This document shows, piece by piece, positions 1 through 11,137 of a DNA stretch of 11,137 nucleotides; the first letter of the stretch is position 1, and each line of letters begins with the position of its first letter. The notes under the pieces are model-generated. The model saw nothing but the letters and a program-made list of their open reading frames with translations. It was not told the origin of the DNA and searched no databases. Source of the stretch: a virus (Duplodnaviria > Heunggongvirae > Uroviricota > Caudoviricetes); IMG/VR virus record IMGVR_UViG_2526164688_000030; one strand, given 5' to 3'. Made by a program: the position numbers and the translations under genes.

Positions 1-876
1 GGATGGGGAGTAAGCTTAGTCAGCCGTTGTCTCCGGGTGTCGCGTGCGCAGTTGCACGTCATTCTCAGACGAACCGATGACTGGATGGATGGCCGCCGCA
101 GTCGTCACACTGATGATACGGATGTGCTTCTCCGTATACACCATGTTATCGGAGAGCTGCCCACGTATGGTTATCGTCGGGTATGGGCGCTGCTTCGCAG
201 ACAGGCAGAACTTGATGGTATGCCTGCGATCAATGCCAAACGTGTTTACCGGATCATGCGCCAGAATGCGCTGTTGCTTGAGCGAAAACCTGCTGTACCG
301 CCATCGAAACGGGCACATACAGGCAGAGTGGCTGTGAAAGAAAGTAATCAGCGATGGTGCTCTGACGGGTTCGAGTTCCGCTGTGATAACGGAGAAAAAC
401 TGCGAGTCACGTTCGCGCTGGACTGCTGTGACCGTGAGGCACTGCACTGGGCGGTCACTACGGGCGGCTTCAACAGTGAAACAGTACAGGACGTCATGCT
501 GGGAGCGGTGGAACGCCGCTTCGGCAACGAGCTTCCGGCGTCTCCAGTAGAGTGGCTGACGGATAATGGTTCATGCTACCGGGCTAATGAAACACGGCAG
601 TTTGCCCGGATGTTGGGGCTTGAACCGAAGAGCACGGCGGTGCGGAGTCCGGAGAGTAACGGCATAGCAGAGAGCTTCGTGAAAACGATAAAGCGTGACT
701 ACATCAGTGTCATGCCCAAACCAGACGGGTTAACGGCAGCAAAGAACCTTGCAGAGGCGTTCGAGCATTATAACGAATGGCATCCGCATAGTGCACTGGG
801 TTATCGCTCGCCACGGGAATATCTACGGCAGCAAGCCAGTAATGGGTTAAGTGATAACAGGTGTCTGGAAATATAG
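1..876 (+). CDS. insD: IS2 transposase OrfB (InsD), 5'-truncated by the window edge; DDE/RNase H-fold integrase-type catalytic domain
   Basis: Frame 1 is open from base 1 ([20 protein letters not shown]...), continuing the 37..876 ORF upstream; stop TAG at 874-876. Sequence is characteristic of IS3-family OrfB. Confidence 0.88.
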
Positions 877-887
877 GGGCAAATCCA
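1..887 (+). mobile_element. IS2: IS2 insertion sequence, 3' portion (left end lies outside the window); right terminus ...TGGAAATATAGGGGCAAATCCA ends at 887
   Basis: Encoded protein matches recalled IS2 InsD over its whole visible length; terminal sequence at 866-887 matches the IS2 right inverted repeat as I recall it. Coding frame is open from base 1, so the element continues upstream of the window. Confidence 0.88.
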
Positions 888-959
888 GTTCGTAAAATTG
901 GTGGAATCCGTTTTCCTTTGCTGGCAGTCCGTGCTTATTATGCGTCCAGTATAGCTATT

Positions 960-2342
960 ATGACATCGCAAGGGACGTGGGTTAGTGCTTTAGAACGCCT
1001 AGAGCGTGCGCTTAGGCTGTGTTGTTTTTTTCGAAAGCATACTGATTTCAGGGATGAATTTGATCAGCTTTCGGCACATCTACTAGCAGAGTATGAACGT
1101 ACCAGAGAACAAGGCGATTCACCTTATCCGCTGCGACTCCTGCAACTCGATATCGACTGTAAAGTGAGTGAGCCATCTTTTATTGCCCAGGAACTCCTGT
1201 TTCTGACAAAAAACTATCTGGCTCAAAAATTATTTTCATTTGCCGTCGATGCCTGTAAAACCGCAATCCCGATTGCGAATAGGTGCTGTGACAGAGATAC
1301 ACAGTTTGAATTCTGGCGGCTTCTTGCCGATACACATCTGGAAGAGTCAAAATTCCAAGATGGCGGTATGATTTCGGCAGCCTGCATGCAGAATGCTATT
1401 GAAGCACTGGCTAATATTCCAGGAACCCGAATAGAACGTCTTGCGCTGTATGAAGAAATGCGTGATTACCAAATCGAATCCCGTCACCAGATGTCTATCC
1501 TTCAGTCTCCCCCTCAAGATATTAGTGAGATTGTCCATCAAGCCAAGAGTCGGGTAGTCGGAAGAGATTTGTTTGATATGGTTTTCAGACTTGCGATGCT
1601 GGTCTGTCGGCCAACCAGCATTGAGAGACTTAAGGCTCAAGCAATAGAACAAAAGGCCAACAGCATAGCTTGGATGTTTGGATCAACACATATTGATCAT
1701 GAGGGAATGACACTTGCTCGCATACCCGCAGGATTGGGGATTGATGATGCAAATGGGGCAGTTATTTGGCCCATAATGATGACGAGAATGCGTATCGACC
1801 ATGAGTTGGCAGTAGCTGGGCAAATTATTCCTGCTACAGATGAGATCACAATGAAATATCCAATCTCGGAGGCGTTTTTTCGCGATATGTTCATCAATCA
1901 TCCCTTCATCCCGTTTGGGCATGAAGAGTTTTTCATCAAGGGTATGGTTTGCGGTTTCAATGGAGATTTTATGACGGCATGCCACGTGTTGATTCCCCAG
2001 ATCGAAAATAGTCTGAGATATGTGGCTAAAATTAAAGGTGAGGAACCATCGCAGCTTCACGGGGACGGTTCGCAAGAGCGAAATGGACTCAAGGGATTAC
2101 TAGATAATCCACTGATTATTGAAGCTTTCGGCGTAGACATAATTGGCAATCTTCAGGCCTTACTGGTAGATAAAATCTATGGTGATTTACGAAATCAACT
2201 AGCTCACGGATATGTGCCTGCCGGTTACTACAATCAACCTCCCTGCATTTTTGCATGGTGGCTTGTATTGCACATTCTAATGAACCCTACGGCGAGATAC
2301 TGGCAAGCCACTTATGGCCAAGAGAGTGAGGCTCAGACTTAA
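960..2342 (+). CDS. Hypothetical cargo protein (~460 aa from ATG 960; ORF open from 858) with C-terminal R-x4-H motif (DLRNQLAHG) suggesting a HEPN-like RNase domain; candidate abortive-infection/defence protein
   Basis: Long uninterrupted ORF with stop at 2340-2342. Start is uncertain: the frame is open across the IS2 boundary (GTG 861 lies inside IS2), ATG 960 is the first ATG after IS2 but has no clear SD, TTG 918 is an alternative. The R-N-x-x-x-H motif near the C-terminus is read directly. Convergent with flanking phage genes; not a recognisable lambdoid function. Confidence 0.55.
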   Translation: MTSQGTWVSALERLERALRLCCFFRKHTDFRDEFDQLSAHLLAEYERTREQGDSPYPLRLLQLDIDCKVSEPSFIAQELLFLTKNYLAQKLFSFAVDACKTAIPIANRCCDRDTQFEFWRLLADTHLEESKFQDGGMISAACMQNAIEALANIPGTRIERLALYEEMRDYQIESRHQMSILQSPPQDISEIVHQAKSRVVGRDLFDMVFRLAMLVCRPTSIERLKAQAIEQKANSIAWMFGSTHIDHEGMTLARIPAGLGIDDANGAVIWPIMMTRMRIDHELAVAGQIIPATDEITMKYPISEAFFRDMFINHPFIPFGHEEFFIKGMVCGFNGDFMTACHVLIPQIENSLRYVAKIKGEEPSQLHGDGSQERNGLKGLLDNPLIIEAFGVDIIGNLQALLVDKIYGDLRNQLAHGYVPAGYYNQPPCIFAWWLVLHILMNPTARYWQATYGQESEAQT

Positions 2343-5337: not shown

Positions 5338-5493
5338 ATGGATACTATCGATCTTGGCAACAGCGAATCTCTGGTATGTGGCGTGTTCCCCAACCAGGAC
5401 GGCACGTTCACCGCGATGACGTATACCAAAAGCAAAACGTTTAAAACCGAAAATGGTGCCCGTCGCTGGCTGGAAAGAAACTCAGGTGAGTGA
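5338..5493 (+). CDS. ydfA: YdfA/YdaF-like small protein (51 aa) of the dicB operon
   Basis: ATG 5338 with purine-rich SD (GAGGT); protein MDTIDLGNSESLVCGVFPNQDGTFTAMTYTKSKTFKTENGARRWLERNSGE matches recalled Qin YdfA; stop TGA at 5491-5493. Confidence 0.75.
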   Translation: MDTIDLGNSESLVCGVFPNQDGTFTAMTYTKSKTFKTENGARRWLERNSGE

Positions 5494-5494
5494 T

Positions 5495-6070
5495 ATGGAT
5501 TTCGACACAATCATGGAAAAGGCTTACGAAGAATACTTCGAAGGCCTTGCCGAAGGCGAAGAAGCTCTCAGCTTCAGTGAGTTTAAACAGGCACTCAGAA
5601 TAAGAATGTGCTCTCACAATGACGCGGAGCACAAATATGAGAAGCAAAATCAGACCGCAGAAAATTTTGTTCTGGAACCCGGAGAAACGCTTTTCAAAAT
5701 TCCCGTTACGTGCCCCATTTGCGGTTTTACATCAGAAGAACTTGACGACTCCTGTAACAATCAGGAAACAACCAAGTATGTCGAAGATGATACCGAGTGC
5801 GCACGAAGAACGATTATATCCACGAGTCCAAACTCCAGGGCCAATAAATCTCACTTTGAGAGGGTGATTAATCCACTCCCCCAAACCAATAAAAAAGATG
5901 CCGGAGGACAAAAAACCCAATGGAACAACGGGATATCTGTCAAAAAAAGACGTTCCATTAAAGACAAACAACGCAGCGCCAACAACTGTAAGCGCTTTAT
6001 ACCAGTAATCAATTTTCATGTTCTTAAGCGGATTTATTGGTGGTTGCGACATTGCTTAATGAATCCTTAA
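5495..6070 (+). CDS. ydfB: YdfB-like protein; N-terminus MDFDTIMEKAYEEYFEGLAEGEEALSFSEFKQAL; ORF stays open for 191 codons but the C-terminal extent is uncertain
   Basis: ATG 5495 is 1 nt after the ydfA stop with SD CAGGTGAG. N-terminal ~35 aa match recalled YdfB. The K/R/N-rich 3' half and rare codons suggest the distal part may be an antisense shadow of the minus-strand ORF 5732..6052. Confidence 0.45.
   Translation: MDFDTIMEKAYEEYFEGLAEGEEALSFSEFKQALRIRMCSHNDAEHKYEKQNQTAENFVLEPGETLFKIPVTCPICGFTSEELDDSCNNQETTKYVEDDTECARRTIISTSPNSRANKSHFERVINPLPQTNKKDAGGQKTQWNNGISVKKRRSIKDKQRSANNCKRFIPVINFHVLKRIYWWLRHCLMNP
5732..6052 (-). CDS. Candidate small membrane protein (106 aa, about three predicted TM segments) antisense to the 3' half of the ydfB-like ORF
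   Basis: ATG at 6052; translation has three hydrophobic stretches (ALTVVGAALFVF, VVPLGFLSSGIFFIGLG, ALGIIFDILGCFLIVTGVV). Only a weak SD (GGA 13 nt upstream). Cannot be resolved against the overlapping plus-strand ORF from sequence alone. Confidence 0.3.
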   Translation of the reverse strand: MSQPPINPLKNMKIDYWYKALTVVGAALFVFNGTSFFDRYPVVPLGFLSSGIFFIGLGEWINHPLKVRFIGPGVWTRGYNRSSCALGIIFDILGCFLIVTGVVKFF

Positions 6071-6329: not shown

Positions 6330-6387
6330 TTTCTGGTGACGTTTGGCGGTATCAGTTTTACTCCGTGACTGCTCTGCCGCCGTTTTT
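6330..6387 (+). ncRNA. dicF: DicF small regulatory RNA (Hfq-dependent sRNA processed from the dicB-operon transcript; ftsZ antisense regulator)
   Basis: TTTCTGGTGACGTTTGGCGGTATCAGTTTTACTCCGTGACTGCTCTGCCGCCGTTTTT matches recalled E. coli DicF almost base-for-base, with 3' GC-rich stem plus U-tract, in the expected position between ydfB/C-like and dicB. Confidence 0.8.
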
Positions 6388-6556: not shown

Positions 6557-6745
6557 ATGAAAACGTTATTACCAAACGTTAATACGTCTGAAGGTTGTTT
6601 TGAAATTGGTGTCACTATCAGTAACCCTGTATTTACTGAAGATGCCATTAACAAGAGAAAACAAGAACGGGAGCTATTAAATAAAATATGCATTGTTTCA
6701 ATGCTGGCTCGTTTACGTCTGATGCCAAAAGGATGTGCACAATGA
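6557..6745 (+). CDS. dicB: DicB cell-division inhibitor (62 aa; MinC-dependent in E. coli)
   Basis: ATG 6557 with SD GAGGA (7-nt spacer); protein MKTLLPNVNTSEGCFEIGVTISNPVFTEDAINKRKQERELLNKICIVSMLARLRLMPKGCAQ matches recalled Qin DicB; stop TGA at 6743-6745. Confidence 0.85.
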   Translation: MKTLLPNVNTSEGCFEIGVTISNPVFTEDAINKRKQERELLNKICIVSMLARLRLMPKGCAQ

Positions 6746-6933
6746 ATTCAGCATTTGCGCTTGTTCTGACAGTTTTTCTTGTTTCCGGAGTGCCAGTTGA
6801 TATTGCAGTCAGTGTTCACAGGACAATGCAGGAGTGTATGACTGCAGCAACCGAACAGAAAATTCCCGGTAACTGTTACCCGGTCGATAAAGTTATTAAC
6901 CAGGATAATATCGAAATCTCGGCAGGTCTTTAA
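6742..6933 (+). CDS. ydfD: YdfD-like small membrane protein (63 aa; reported lysis protein in E. coli)
   Basis: ATG 6742 overlaps the dicB stop (ATGA); N-terminal hydrophobic segment MNSAFALVLTVFLVSGVPV; matches recalled Qin YdfD. Confidence 0.75.
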   Translation: MNSAFALVLTVFLVSGVPVDIAVSVHRTMQECMTAATEQKIPGNCYPVDKVINQDNIEISAGL

Positions 6934-7026
6934 AACAGTTCCGTAATAAATATCCGGTTTCATTCTTATATGCCAGCAATGGCAGGGATTTGTTCATCCT
7001 TAAATCTGTCATGAGGTTAAAACAAA

Positions 7027-9498
7027 ATGAGTAAAGTCTTTATTTGCGCCGCTATTCCTGACGAACTGGCAACAAGGGAAGAAGGCGCTGTGGCTGTAGC
7101 CACAGCCATTGAAGCTGGCGACGAACGCCGTGCTCGAGCAAAATTTCACTGGCAATTCCTGGAACATTATCCGGCTGCTCAGGACTGCGCTTATAAATTT
7201 ATTGTCTGCGAGGATAAACCTGGCATACCCCGCCCTGCCCTCGATTCATGGGATGCTGAATATATGCAGGAAAACCGCTGGGATGAGGAGTCTGCTTCTT
7301 TTGTCCCGAATGAGACTGAATCCGATCCGATGAACGTCACTTTTGACAAGCTGGCCCCTGAAGTACAGAACGCTGTCATGGTTAAGTTCGACACATGTGA
7401 AAACATCACCGTTGATATGGTTATTAGCGCACAGGAATTGTTGCAGGAAGACATGGCAACATTCGACGGACATATCGTTGAAGCGTTGATGAAAATGCCA
7501 GAAGTTAACGCCATGTATCCGGAGCTTAAGTTGCACGCCATTGGGTGGGTTAAGCATAAATGTATTCCTGGTGCTAAATGGCCCGAAATTCAGGCAGAGA
7601 TGCGCATCTGGAAAAAACGTCGCGAAGGTGAACGCAAGGAAACCGGAAAATACACGTCTGTTGTTGATCTCGCACGCGCCAGAGCCAATCAACCGTACAC
7701 TGAAAATTCAACAGGAAAAATCAGCCCGGTCATTGCTGCCATTCATCGCGAATACAAGCAGACATGGAAAACACTGGATGACGAACTGGCCTACGCTCTC
7801 TGGCCTGGTGATGTGGATGCCGGAAACATTGACGGCAGCATCCATCGCTGGGCAAAAAAAGAAGTTATCGACAACGACCGCGAAGACTGGAAGCGTATCT
7901 CGGCATCAATGCGCAAACAGCCTGATGCCCTTCGCTACGACCGCCAGACTATTTTTGGCCTTGTCCGTGAGCGTCCGATCGACATTCACAAAGATCCCGT
8001 AGCACTGAACAAATATATCTGCGAATACCTGACGACAAAGGGCGTGTTTGAGAATGAAGAAACAGACCTGGGCACTGTTGATGTTCTCCAGTCATCAGAA
8101 ACACAAACTGATGCAGTGGAAACTGAGGTATCTGATATCCCAAAAAATGAAACCGCGCCGGAAGCTGAACCATCTGTAGAGCGTGAGGGGCCGTTCTATT
8201 TCCTCTTCGCAGATAAGGACGGAGAAAAATACGGTCGCGCAAACAAACTTTCTGGTCTGGATAAGGCACTGGCTGCTGGCGCCACTGAAATCACAAAAGA
8301 AGAATATTTTGCCCGAAAAAATGGCACATACACGGGCTTACCGCAAAATGTAGATACCGCTGAAGATTCAGAACAACCAGAGCCGATAAAAGTTACCGCT
8401 GACGAAGTAAACAAAATTATGCAGGCAGCCAATATCAGCCAGCCTGACGCCGATAAGTTGCTTGCTGCCTCTCGCGGAGAATTTGTTGCAGGGATTAGCG
8501 ACCCGAATGATCCGAAATGGGTTAAGGGGATCCAGACCCGCGATTCTGTAAACCAGAACCAGCATGAATCGGAACGGAACTACCAAAAAGCGGAACAAAA
8601 CAGCCCAAATGCGTTACAAAACGAGCCAGAAACGAAACAGCCTGAACCAGTGGCGCAACAGGAAGTGGAAAAAGTCTGCACCGCCTGCGGTCAGACCGGC
8701 GGCGGCAACTGCCCTGATTGTGGCGCGGTGATGGGCGACGCAACATACCAGGAAACATTCGATGAAGAGTATCAGGTTGAAGTTCAGGAAGATGATCCGG
8801 AGAAAATGGAAGGCGCTGAACATCCACACAAGGAGAACACTGGCGGCAATCAGCATCATGCCAGCGATAATGAAACTGGCGAGACGGCAGATCACTCAAT
8901 TAAGGTGAACGGTCATCAAGAAATCACATCCACCAGCAGGACGTGTGACCATCTAATGATCGACCTTGAAACCATGGGAAAAAATCCTGATGCCCCGATC
9001 ATCTCAATAGGTGCAATATTTTTCGATCCGCAAACCGGAGATATGGGACCGGAATTTAGTAAGACTATCGATCTGGAAACTGCTGGCGGAGTCATTGATC
9101 GGGACACCATTAAATGGTGGCTTAAGCAATCACGCGAAGCGCAATCTGCCATTATGACCGATGAAATCCCGTTAGATGATGCACTGTTACAATTGCGGGA
9201 ATTTATCGACGAAAACTCCGGTGAATTTTTTGTTCAGGTCTGGGGAAATGGAGCCAACTTCGACAACACGATTTTGCGCCGTTCATACGAACGGCAGGGG
9301 ATCCCCTGCCCGTGGCGTTACTACAACGATCGCGATGTACGCACAATCGTTGAGCTGGGGAAAGCCATAGACTTCGATGCCAGAACGGCTATTCCATTCG
9401 AAGGTGAGCGCCATAATGCACTTGATGACGCCCGTTACCAGGCAAAATACGTTTCAGTTATCTGGCAAAAACTGATCCCGAGTCAGGCTGATTCTTAA
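7027..9498 (+). CDS. ydfE: Full-length YdfE-like large early-left protein (823 aa): N-terminal domain of unknown function, central Cys4 zinc ribbon (CTACGQTGGGNCPDCG), C-terminal DnaQ-like DEDDh 3'-5' exonuclease domain
   Basis: ATG 7027 with SD GAGGT. The three DEDDh motifs are read directly: MIDLETMG (Exo I), WGNGANFDNTIL (Exo II), HNALDDARYQ (Exo III). The N-terminus matches the recalled K-12 YdfE fragment. Sits where lambdoid phages carry recombination/exonuclease genes, upstream of xis-int. Confidence 0.85.
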   Translation: MSKVFICAAIPDELATREEGAVAVATAIEAGDERRARAKFHWQFLEHYPAAQDCAYKFIVCEDKPGIPRPALDSWDAEYMQENRWDEESASFVPNETESDPMNVTFDKLAPEVQNAVMVKFDTCENITVDMVISAQELLQEDMATFDGHIVEALMKMPEVNAMYPELKLHAIGWVKHKCIPGAKWPEIQAEMRIWKKRREGERKETGKYTSVVDLARARANQPYTENSTGKISPVIAAIHREYKQTWKTLDDELAYALWPGDVDAGNIDGSIHRWAKKEVIDNDREDWKRISASMRKQPDALRYDRQTIFGLVRERPIDIHKDPVALNKYICEYLTTKGVFENEETDLGTVDVLQSSETQTDAVETEVSDIPKNETAPEAEPSVEREGPFYFLFADKDGEKYGRANKLSGLDKALAAGATEITKEEYFARKNGTYTGLPQNVDTAEDSEQPEPIKVTADEVNKIMQAANISQPDADKLLAASRGEFVAGISDPNDPKWVKGIQTRDSVNQNQHESERNYQKAEQNSPNALQNEPETKQPEPVAQQEVEKVCTACGQTGGGNCPDCGAVMGDATYQETFDEEYQVEVQEDDPEKMEGAEHPHKENTGGNQHHASDNETGETADHSIKVNGHQEITSTSRTCDHLMIDLETMGKNPDAPIISIGAIFFDPQTGDMGPEFSKTIDLETAGGVIDRDTIKWWLKQSREAQSAIMTDEIPLDDALLQLREFIDENSGEFFVQVWGNGANFDNTILRRSYERQGIPCPWRYYNDRDVRTIVELGKAIDFDARTAIPFEGERHNALDDARYQAKYVSVIWQKLIPSQADS

Positions 9499-9570: not shown

Positions 9571-9822
9571 ATGAGCGAAGTAATCATGATTGTCTCTCCC
9601 GGCAAATGGGTATCCGAAGAGCAGTTAATTGCGCTGAAAGGAATAAAAAAAGGTACGTTAAAAAAGGCCCGGGAAAAATCGTTTATGGAAGGAAGGGAAT
9701 ATAAGCATGTCGCTCATGACGGTATGCCATGGGATAACAGTCCATGCTTTTACAACCTGGAAGAAATTGATCGCTGGATTGAGCGCCAGGCATCAGCGAG
9801 ACCAAGACGTCATCTTACTTGA
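9571..9822 (+). CDS. xis: Putative excisionase (Xis-like small DNA-binding protein, 83 aa) immediately upstream of int
   Basis: Small basic protein adjacent to and co-oriented with the integrase; resembles lambdoid/cryptic-prophage excisionase-like proteins. ATG 9571 has only a weak SD; ATG 9586 is an alternative start. Confidence 0.65.
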   Translation: MSEVIMIVSPGKWVSEEQLIALKGIKKGTLKKAREKSFMEGREYKHVAHDGMPWDNSPCFYNLEEIDRWIERQASARPRRHLT

Positions 9823-9856
9823 CTAAAAGCCACACTAACTAATGAGAGAAGTTGAA

Positions 9857-11137
9857 ATGAAATATCCGACAGGCGTGGAAAACCATGGAGGGAAATTACG
9901 TATCTGGTTTGTTTATAAAGGCGTAAGAGTCAGGGAAAATCTGGGGGTTCCTGACACAGCAAAAAACAGGCGCGTTGCAGGTGAACTACGCTCCTCTGTT
10001 TGTTACGCAATAAAAACTGGTGTTTTCGACTATGCAAAACAGTTTCCCTCCTCACGCAATCTGGAAAAATTTGGTGAGGCCCGACAAGATTTAACCATAA
10101 AAGAACTGGCTGAAAAATTTCTGGCACTGAAAGAAACTGAAGTCGCCAAAACATCACTCAACACATACCGTGCCGTCATCAAAAATATCCTGAGCATAAT
10201 CGGTGAAAAAAATCTTGCCTCATCGATTAATAAAGAAAAATTACTGGAGGTTCGTAAAGAGTTACTGACTGGATACCAGATCCCCAAAAGTAACTATATT
10301 GTTACACAACCAGGGAGATCGGCTGTAACTGTAAATAATTACATGACAAATCTTAACGCCGTGTTCCAGTTTGGTGTTGATAACGGTTACCTGGCAGATA
10401 ATCCGTTTAAGGGGATCTCGCCATTAAAGGAATCAAGAACCATTCCGGATCCTCTTTCGCGGGAAGAATTTATCCGTCTTATCGATGCGTGCAGAAATCA
10501 GCAAGCAAAAAATTTATGGTGTGTTTCTGTTTATACTGGCGTTCGCCCTGGTGAGCTGTGTGCACTTGGATGGGAGGACGTAGATCTGAAAAATGGAACA
10601 ATGATGATCAGGAGAAATTTAGCAAAAGACCGTTTCACGGTACCAAAAACACAGGCGGGAACCAATCGGGTCATTCATCTTATTAAGCCAGCAATCGACG
10701 CTCTCCGGAGTCAGATGACATTAACGAGACTGAGCAAAGAGCATATCATTGATGTTCACCTCAGAGAGTATGGCAGAACAGAAAAACAAAAATGCACCTT
10801 TGTTTTTCAACCTGAAGTGTCAGCGAGAGTAAAAAATTATGGTGACCATTTTACCGTTGACTCAATAAGGCAGATGTGGGACGCAGCGATAAAACGTGCC
10901 GGACTCCGCCATCGAAAATCATATCAGTCGAGACATACTTATGCCTGCTGGTCGCTGACAGCTGGTGCTAACCCGGCATTTATAGCAAACCAGATGGGCC
11001 ATGCAGATGCGCAAATGGTATTTCAGGTATACGGAAAATGGATGTCTGAAAACAATAATGCACAGGTAGCTTTGTTAAATACACAGTTAAGCGAGTTTGC
11101 CCCAACCATGCCCCATAACGAAGCAATGAAAAATTAA
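9857..11137 (+). CDS. int: Tyrosine site-specific integrase with N-terminal arm-binding domain (GVENHGGKLRIWFVYKGVRVRE) and C-terminal catalytic domain (R...HxxR...Y)
   Basis: Most likely start is ATG 9857 (SD GAGAGAAG, 5-nt spacer) rather than ATG 9842. C-terminal motifs RHTYACW, GHADAQMVFQVYGKW and the catalytic Tyr region are typical of phage integrases. Stop TAA is the last three bases of the window. Confidence 0.9.
   Translation: MKYPTGVENHGGKLRIWFVYKGVRVRENLGVPDTAKNRRVAGELRSSVCYAIKTGVFDYAKQFPSSRNLEKFGEARQDLTIKELAEKFLALKETEVAKTSLNTYRAVIKNILSIIGEKNLASSINKEKLLEVRKELLTGYQIPKSNYIVTQPGRSAVTVNNYMTNLNAVFQFGVDNGYLADNPFKGISPLKESRTIPDPLSREEFIRLIDACRNQQAKNLWCVSVYTGVRPGELCALGWEDVDLKNGTMMIRRNLAKDRFTVPKTQAGTNRVIHLIKPAIDALRSQMTLTRLSKEHIIDVHLREYGRTEKQKCTFVFQPEVSARVKNYGDHFTVDSIRQMWDAAIKRAGLRHRKSYQSRHTYACWSLTAGANPAFIANQMGHADAQMVFQVYGKWMSENNNAQVALLNTQLSEFAPTMPHNEAMKN

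Follow-up and report, generated by a model that had tools for sequence, protein, structure and literature searches.

The N-terminal region of RecE (exonuclease VIII, encoded by the Rac prophage of Escherichia coli K-12) has no known function, and its nuclease domain has been placed at residues 564–866 in a review (PMC11611040). In their survey of recombination (Rec) modules, Zheng et al. (Genome Res 2025, PMC12315714) present phage Tritos as the prototype of a 'nuclease-only' class, Chi-rich and with no annealase (single-strand annealing protein, SAP), single-stranded DNA-binding protein (SSB) or anti-RecBCD function; they also record DnaQ-like 3′–5′ enzymes in lambdoid Rec modules and, sporadically, beside int. 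Here we describe the YdfE protein encoded at nt 7027–9498 of an 11,137 nt stretch of caudoviral DNA (IMG/VR record IMGVR_UViG_2526164688_000030; the whole stretch is referred to as the window). The window covers the early-left operon of a lambdoid prophage of the Qin/Tritos type. It matches E. coli chromosomes at 99.6–99.7% identity, where it forms part of a Qin-like lambdoid prophage integrated beside rspB, and corresponds exactly to contig AIGK01000032.1 (GCA_000249895.2). YdfE is predicted to join a RecE-like scaffold to a DEDDh exonuclease domain, an assignment of architecture that we regard as close to certain.

The gene reads from ATG to stop through 823 codons with zero internal stops, so that an earlier sequence-only reading of the window was right to call it intact, and a PHROGs full-length family (phrog_2082) matches residues 1–822 of 823. 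The precomputed Pfam labels on the protein are YdfE_N, YdfE_C and Rv2179c-like; the first two are recent families, named for the K-12 fragment, with no assigned function. Initiation within the gene at M644, the point at which stand-alone homologues start, was considered and rejected, there being no Shine–Dalgarno sequence 5′ of that codon. The gene and its parts are listed below, with coordinates of the whole window and residue numbers of the 823-aa product.

7027..9498, + strand: full-length YdfE ORF (open reading frame), 823 aa, ATG to stop; RecE-like scaffold and predicted DEDDh exonuclease
7012..7015, + strand: GAGG, a plausible Shine–Dalgarno sequence 11 nt 5′ of the ATG, read from the sequence
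7027..7695, + strand: N-terminal domain, residues 1–223 (Pfam YdfE_N), predicted alpha/beta fold (AlphaFold2, hhalign)
7762..8046, + strand: central helical domain, residues 246–340 (Pfam YdfE_C), from the RecE alignment and the AlphaFold2 model
8062..8181, + strand: acidic low-complexity linker, residues 346–385 (28% Asp + Glu)
8182..8325, + strand: conserved island, residues 386–433 (GPFYFLFADKDGEKYGRANKL...EEYFARKNGTY), from a phmmer search with residues 346–470
8437..8901, + strand: segment near-identical to K-12 RecE 453–591, residues 471–625 (BLASTP)
8677..8721, + strand: Cys4 motif CTACGQTGGGNCPDC, residues 551–565, a candidate zinc knuckle or ribbon
8950..9465, + strand: predicted DEDDh 3′–5′ exonuclease domain, residues 642–813, Rv2179c/DexA-like (PF16473)
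8962..8970, + strand: Exo I motif, D646 and E648 (MIDLET)
9262..9264, + strand: Exo II motif, D746 (NFD)
9412..9429, + strand: Exo III motif, H796 and D801 (HNALDD; H-x4-D)

Residues 642–813 match PF16473 over profile positions 2–177 of 177 (E 2e-67; 226.7 bits against a cut-off of 27), and the DEDDh pentad (D646, E648, D746, H796, D801) is complete. It is also kept in 8 of 9 divergent family representatives. The DnaQ-like motifs recognised at the C-terminus in the sequence-only reading are therefore both present and conserved, and the domain is, as proposed there, of the 3′–5′ rather than the lambda-Exo fold. The profile match and the conserved pentad make it very likely that the YdfE-type domain is an active 3′–5′ exonuclease, with the predicted polarity being that implied by a DEDDh fold. 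The sole solved relative that sequence search detects is DexA of phage T4 (PDB 8KEL and 8KEN; 227 aa; E 7.6e-8, 28% identity to the exonuclease domain). The ratio of nonsynonymous to synonymous substitution rates (dN/dS) of the nuclease domain is 0.16–0.22. The representative that departs from the pentad, P0230 (752 aa, a RecE_N module with a DEDDh domain), has Lys in place of the Exo I Glu and Ala in place of the Exo II Asp, and is therefore probably a catalytically dead variant.

The front end of the protein is related to RecE. A profile–profile alignment (hhalign) of YdfE_N with RecE_N gave a probability of 98.5% (E 1.6e-15) over 236 columns, and BLASTP aligned window residues 262–625 with RecE 278–591, the identity being near-complete from residue 473 and taking in the Cys4 motif. 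The NCBIfam RecE model (NF007259) matches residues 246–625 only, at 278.8 bits against an equivalog cut-off of 1269; the protein thus scores below the cut-off with a RecE-type N-terminal and central region present. Taken together, the profile match and the direct alignment of the central and linker regions indicate that the entire front end of YdfE is the N-terminal region of RecE in diverged form. RecE (residues ~278–355) and all architectures of the family share the central helical domain. The BLASTP alignment ends at residue 625, near the start of the RecE nuclease domain, which we take to span residues ~606–866, and a phmmer search with RecE 596–866 matched other family members but not the window protein.

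An AlphaFold2 model of residues 1–345, built from a 39-sequence alignment and ending at residue 345, has a mean predicted local distance difference test score (pLDDT) of 91.6, with residues 1–223 mostly above 90. It consists of an alpha/beta domain (1–223), a disordered loop (224–235) and a helical domain (246–340). Foldseek searches of BFVD and the PDB with the N-terminal model returned nothing at E ≤ 1e-3, and so no fold of established function, and a local Pfam search of the N-terminal region gave no match. The sequence-only reading had described some 450 N-terminal residues as having no obvious function; this stands insofar as no functional match was obtained, but it overlooked the homology to RecE, distant over residues 1–245 and direct over ~246–625. 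That predicted relationship, and a confidently modelled N-terminal fold lacking a functionally informative structural relative, are both new here. A whole-library HMMER search with residues 1–345 gave only 168 clusters at 50% identity, and the N-terminal family of YdfE is therefore narrow. The dN/dS values are 0.10 for the N-terminal domain and 0.14 for the central helical domain.

Between the folded ends lies a linker that was correctly described as acidic and of low complexity, Asp and Glu making up 28% of residues 346–385 and 26% of residues 576–640. Its dN/dS (0.34–0.39 in 346–470 and 0.49–0.57 in 471–625) is above that of the folded parts, and from composition and relaxed constraint it is probably disordered. 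The island at residues 386–433 is kept in YdfE_N-type relatives regardless of the C-terminal effector (e.g. P0126, P0139), and segment 471–625 includes the sequence LLAASRGEFVxGISDPNDPKWVKGIQTRD and the second acidic tract. The Cys4 motif put forward from the sequence as a zinc ribbon is there, at 551–565 (CTACGQTGGGNCPDC), but it is not conserved: CxxC-x8-CxxC occurs in 1 of 57 long family representatives, that of the window protein's own type, and also in K-12 RecE, which was checked separately. It is therefore a lineage-specific feature, in a linker that evolves fast, and does not mark the family as a whole. Synonymous divergence (dS) is strongly unequal between regions of the gene, with a spread of more than 20-fold in comparisons with phages Evi and mEp460; in the nuclease domain it is 1.09 against Evi (L041:7690-10170) and 0.04 against mEp460 (L040:6449-8920). 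These regional differences show domain-level recombination inside the exonuclease gene.

When the modules were mapped onto family representatives with phmmer, YdfE-type and RecE-type N-modules were each found with a DEDDh and with a PD-(D/E)XK nuclease, so that all four pairings exist. The predicted architectures show the C-terminal effector swapped at the linker against the PD-(D/E)XK domain of RecE. In vB_EcoS-640R1, for example, a RecE-type N-terminus (59% identical to RecE 50–591) precedes a DEDDh domain that is practically the same as that of the window protein, and the gene occupies the same slot as in the window (dicB-ydfD-exo-xis-int). The neighbours differ with the nuclease. Downstream of the PD-(D/E)XK versions lies a gene of the RecT family, as in recE-recT of Rac and at P0128, where the downstream gene matches PF03837 (E 2e-36). 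The DEDDh gene is followed directly by xis/int in eight loci (the window, LD91-1, HannyBb, 640R1, Tritos, mEp460, P0228 and P0252) and by a small unnamed ORF in Evi, and no annealase stands beside it at any of these nine loci. The absence of a visible recombinase partner, remarked on in the sequence-only reading, thus extends to the neighbouring genomes: no annealase (SAP) family was found among the window ORFs, and the annotation of the related phage Tritos, a complete genome, includes neither an annealase nor an anti-RecBCD gene. This pattern of effector swapping, strictly tied in the loci examined to whether an annealase is present, is new. It fits the chemistry, since an annealase requires 3′ tails, which are produced by a 5′–3′ nuclease and not by a 3′–5′ one.

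Two further C-terminal classes are carried on the same scaffold. In one, a conserved domain of ~285 aa follows YdfE_N and the central domain (P0130, P0132, P0139, P0146, P0155, P0159 and others); PHROGs labels these proteins 'exonuclease', and at an example locus (L009:6001-8370) a Sipho_Gp157 gene lies downstream at 8367-8927. Nine of 12 members match Pfam Rad52_Rad22 weakly and below threshold (best E 0.0028), and a PDB profile search with this class returned no Rad52 or Sak match. They share the motif KKSLTDAxKKALSxLGFsADV, of which the KKSLTDAxKKALSxLGF part is presumably RAD52-like. The weak matches and the adjoining Sipho_Gp157 gene suggest a fusion of scaffold and annealase, and the class is put forward as a putative Rad52-like annealase on the scaffold. 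In the other class, a C-terminal region of ~250 aa (P0126, P0268, P0241, P0214, P0267; L011:6001-8109) sits in the slot between kil and int; it has no match in Pfam, NCBIfam or the PDB and belongs to phrog_26058, of unknown function. They may correspond to the nuclease-less 'RecE-2' proteins mentioned by Zheng et al. (PMC12315714).

In K-12, ydfE is a pseudogene (b1577) identical to the window protein at 254 of 256 residues (99%) over residues 1–256 and then broken by IS2E, in agreement with the sequence-only reading. The order dicB-ydfD-ydfE-(xis)-int beside rspB is that of the window, supporting orthology. The description of the full-length copy as showing the ancestral architecture was apt in that it is the intact counterpart of ydfE, but overstated its rarity. 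Of 5426 complete E. coli genomes, 3537 (about 65%) hold a copy that spans 80% or more of the gene, with matches at a median of 2 and a maximum of 10 places per genome, annotated as 'exonuclease' or '3′–5′ exonuclease', and the gene occurs at 88–99% DNA identity in the plaque-forming phages HannyBb, PhiR42_1, Tritos, mEp460 and Evi. It is, then, a catalogued and very common prophage gene, already included in a published survey. It ranks among the commonest E. coli prophage genes: about two-thirds of complete genomes have it, frequently more than once. The usual laboratory strain, K-12, has a truncated copy only, which may explain why ydfE escaped study; no functional study of the protein was found in the literature.

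Several phage records (PV340562.1, OV696610.1 and ON470612.1; L005:4671-7112, L008:26518-28989) name the gene 'exodeoxyribonuclease VIII' or 'exonuclease VIII, ds DNA exonuclease'. This is a mis-annotation, as the protein lacks the PD-(D/E)XK domain of RecE and has a DEDDh domain of opposite predicted polarity; the shared N-terminal and linker region is the source of the transferred label. RefSeq sometimes uses '3′–5′ exoribonuclease domain-containing protein'.

The K-12 gene is co-transcribed with dicB and ydfD from the DicA-repressed dicB promoter (bioRxiv 10.1101/2024.09.21.614188), and a consensus scan upstream of the window gene found no promoter-like site on the + strand. By analogy with the K-12 orthologue, for which the operon is known, the exonuclease is therefore most likely made after derepression, in lytic development. 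A complete related phage is Tritos, whose gene TRITO_27 shares 98.7% DNA identity and the same gene order with the window. One strand of Tritos carries 9 Chi sites and its complement 2, where chance would give 0.7 on each. The sole Chi octamer of the window (8930–8937, bottom strand, GCTGGTGG) is in the linker-coding part of the exonuclease gene and is one of the 9 majority-strand sites of Tritos.

YdfE is the only recombination-slot protein of the Qin/Tritos-type prophage. We propose that it acts, as a Mg2+-dependent nuclease, on phage replication and recombination intermediates, where it would trim 3′ DNA ends or remove 3′ single-stranded tails, creating ends on which host RecBCD could load. 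The phage would in this way depend on the host RecBCD-Chi-RecA pathway and not on a pair of the Red or RecET type, and the RecE-like N-terminal scaffold would serve as a common targeting or assembly platform for exchangeable effectors. Both folded ends of the protein are under purifying selection (dN/dS 0.10–0.22). A role in 3′-end processing during lytic growth of a RecBCD-reliant phage is given a probability of about 45%, and several points weigh against it. According to Zheng et al. (PMC12315714), DnaQ-type 3′–5′ nucleases usually inhibit homologous recombination, and sporadic DnaQ genes beside int are not counted as part of a Rec module unless contiguous with Rec genes. The blunting of ends for RecBCD is drawn purely by analogy from E. 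coli ExoI and ExoX, and the Chi-richness of Tritos-type phages would be equally well explained by a missing anti-RecBCD function alone, with no part for the exonuclease. The substrate could also be RNA, Pfam having named the founder of the family, Rv2179c, as an exoribonuclease.

A wider reading would make the N-terminal region of RecE and YdfE, with its flexible acidic tether, a modular delivery platform of a kind not described before in lambdoid phages, which sends different effectors to one common target; this might be the replisome, a recombination protein of the host or the end of a DNA molecule. The effectors would be the PD-(D/E)XK nuclease accompanied by recT, the DEDDh nuclease on its own, a Rad52-like annealase with a Gp157-like partner, and the domain of the fourth class; the DEDDh version would be a one-protein module handing ends to RecBCD-Chi. 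This is a tentative and, on balance, doubtful proposal. Were it true, it would give a first functional handle on the N-terminal domain of RecE. The questions raised bear on concatemer formation in Chi-rich, seemingly RecBCD-dependent phages, and on the role of the RecE N-terminus, which is relevant to linear–linear recombineering.

Other roles for the domain can be drawn from its relatives. The only experimentally characterised close relatives are T4 DexA and its stand-alone E. coli homologue EcD, and EcD cleaves DNA containing 5-hydroxymethylcytosine (5hmC) and protects against T4 (PMC12153337), so that the DEDDh domain of YdfE might likewise degrade the 5hmC-type DNA of superinfecting T-even phages and protect the lysogen, in a prophage defence of the HREX/EcD kind. 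A prophage-borne and very widespread gene would suit such a function, and an EcD-like 189-aa protein (MIDTET..., Ala78) is 37.7% identical to window residues 644–816. This comparison was made with the EcD-like 189-aa family (Ala78, different C-terminus), found by way of the EcD forward primer, and not with EcD itself; the EcD reverse primer had no match in IMG/VR. However, the proposed determinants of 5hmC recognition are not conserved: in a MAFFT alignment, DexA W152 corresponds to Y766 and D169 to K779 (alignment quality around D169 being moderate), S87 is aligned with P715, and the position of the tetramer-forming DexA D90, which is Ala78 in EcD, keeps its Asp (Asp718). EcD also lacks the 640-residue RecE-like extension, the PADLOC match of the window protein is weak and to a generic DEDDh domain only, and with a DicA-repressed operon in K-12 and no promoter-like site directly 5′, the gene is probably silent in lysogens. 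Defence against 5hmC-modified phage DNA is accordingly improbable, and less likely than the trimming of 3′ ends. The same domain family would also allow a part in host takeover, in which host or fragmented DNA is degraded to nucleotides during lytic growth or linear host ends are destroyed; DexA has a documented scavenging role (PMC12153337). The host-directed early genes dicB and ydfD are co-transcribed with ydfE in K-12, and the early-left region also holds DicF a short way upstream, but the window ORFs offer no endonuclease partner in the operon, and the RecE scaffold, with annealase or RecE-nuclease effectors in relatives, points to recombination and not to bulk degradation. We know of no temperate lambdoid phage that degrades the host chromosome, and scavenging is more improbable still than defence.

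Activity on RNA or oligonucleotides is a little less probable again. The protein would then be a 3′–5′ exoribonuclease or nanoRNase, acting, for instance, on small RNA (sRNA), on the RNA of retrons or primers, or on short nucleotide signals, and possibly serving counter-defence. The naming of PF16473 after the Rv2179c exoribonuclease, the RefSeq label carried by some entries and the sRNA gene dicF within the same operon all speak for it. DexA and EcD, though, the nearest relatives with a structure or a tested activity, act on DNA, the scaffold is common to DNA recombination proteins, and PADLOC shows no tie to signalling-based defence systems. It is very unlikely, finally, that the gene is a decaying or functionless relic that hitch-hikes with the prophage. 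Many copies are truncated or interrupted by insertion sequences (IS), as in K-12 and DTU-1, and P0230 is without two catalytic residues, but the strong purifying selection on the N-terminal and nuclease domains (dN/dS 0.10–0.22) argues against such a relic, as do intact genes in the plaque-forming phages Tritos, HannyBb, mEp460 and Evi and intact copies in thousands of genomes. The trimming of 3′ DNA ends during lytic growth is the reading we prefer.

The remaining features of the window agree with this type of prophage. Its left part carries, in order, the IS2-cut DUF4209 gene, DUF977, an O-like gene, a YdaT-like gene and cro/dicC; then, divergently, come dicA, ydfA, an unknown ORF, DicF, dicB, ydfD, the exonuclease gene, xis and int. 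The exonuclease gene adjoins xis-int, in the position where lambdoid phages carry exo/bet-type functions, as had been pointed out from the sequence. The neighbouring features are as follows.

37..876 and 861..2342: IS2-type transposase ORF (rve, HTH_21) and the adjoining truncated DUF4209/DUF7380 gene
5453/5495..6070, + strand: ORF of 191–205 aa with a CPICG...C cysteine cluster (phrog_35040, no Pfam match)
6331..6382, + strand: DicF sRNA, canonical, 5′ of dicB as in K-12 Qin (Rfam RF00039, 72.5 bits)
6557..6933, + strand: dicB (6557–6745) and ydfD (6742–6933), directly 5′ of the exonuclease gene
9571..11137, + strand: excisionase (9571–9822) and integrase (9842/9857–11137), directly 3′ of the exonuclease gene, no annealase gene intervening

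The ORF at 5453/5495–6070 stands between ydfA and DicF, where K-12 has ydfB and ydfC. The truncated DUF4209/DUF7380 gene matches the PADLOC candidate defence system PDC-S39 (E 3.7e-83) from profile position ~126 on, and is intact (595 aa) in E. coli LD91-1. Since the match begins only there and IS2 abuts the gene, it is probably a defence gene of the prophage that an IS insertion has inactivated in the window strain.

Compared with described systems, the exonuclease domain of YdfE matches the full model of the family founded by Rv2179c of Mycobacterium tuberculosis. Rv2179c, a small stand-alone bacterial protein, differs in having neither a phage context nor the scaffold, and is a 3′–5′ exoribonuclease by its Pfam name. 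E. coli ExoX and ExoI are generally regarded as 3′–5′ DNA exonucleases and would be functional analogues for the proposed mechanism, but they are host-encoded, stand-alone and not close in sequence to YdfE. The two phage-related DEDDh enzymes, T4 DexA and EcD (HREX), are of the same family, with all catalytic residues kept (28% identity for DexA and about 38% for the EcD-like 189-aa protein); they differ in being stand-alone proteins of 189–227 aa, to which the window protein adds a 640-residue N-terminal extension, and YdfE is without the proposed 5hmC determinants and keeps Asp at the D90 position. ExoX, a DnaQ-superfamily 3′–5′ DNase of DNA repair, is among the enzymes referenced by Zheng et al. 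(PMC12315714). The passages of that survey on the Tritos class leave aside the domain architecture, the relationship to the RecE scaffold and the activity of the protein. Unlike Red Exo-Beta and RecE-RecT, the window gene has no adjacent annealase gene and specifies a DEDDh rather than a 5′–3′ exonuclease. RecE itself ends in a PD-(D/E)XK 5′–3′ nuclease, in place of the predicted 3′–5′ DEDDh domain, and recE is followed by recT, which is not present 3′ of the window gene. In other respects RecE is the closest counterpart, with a homologous N-terminal module, the same central helical domain, a linker that is nearly identical including the Cys4 motif (window 471–625 and RecE 453–591), and the same genomic slot between kil-type genes and xis-int.

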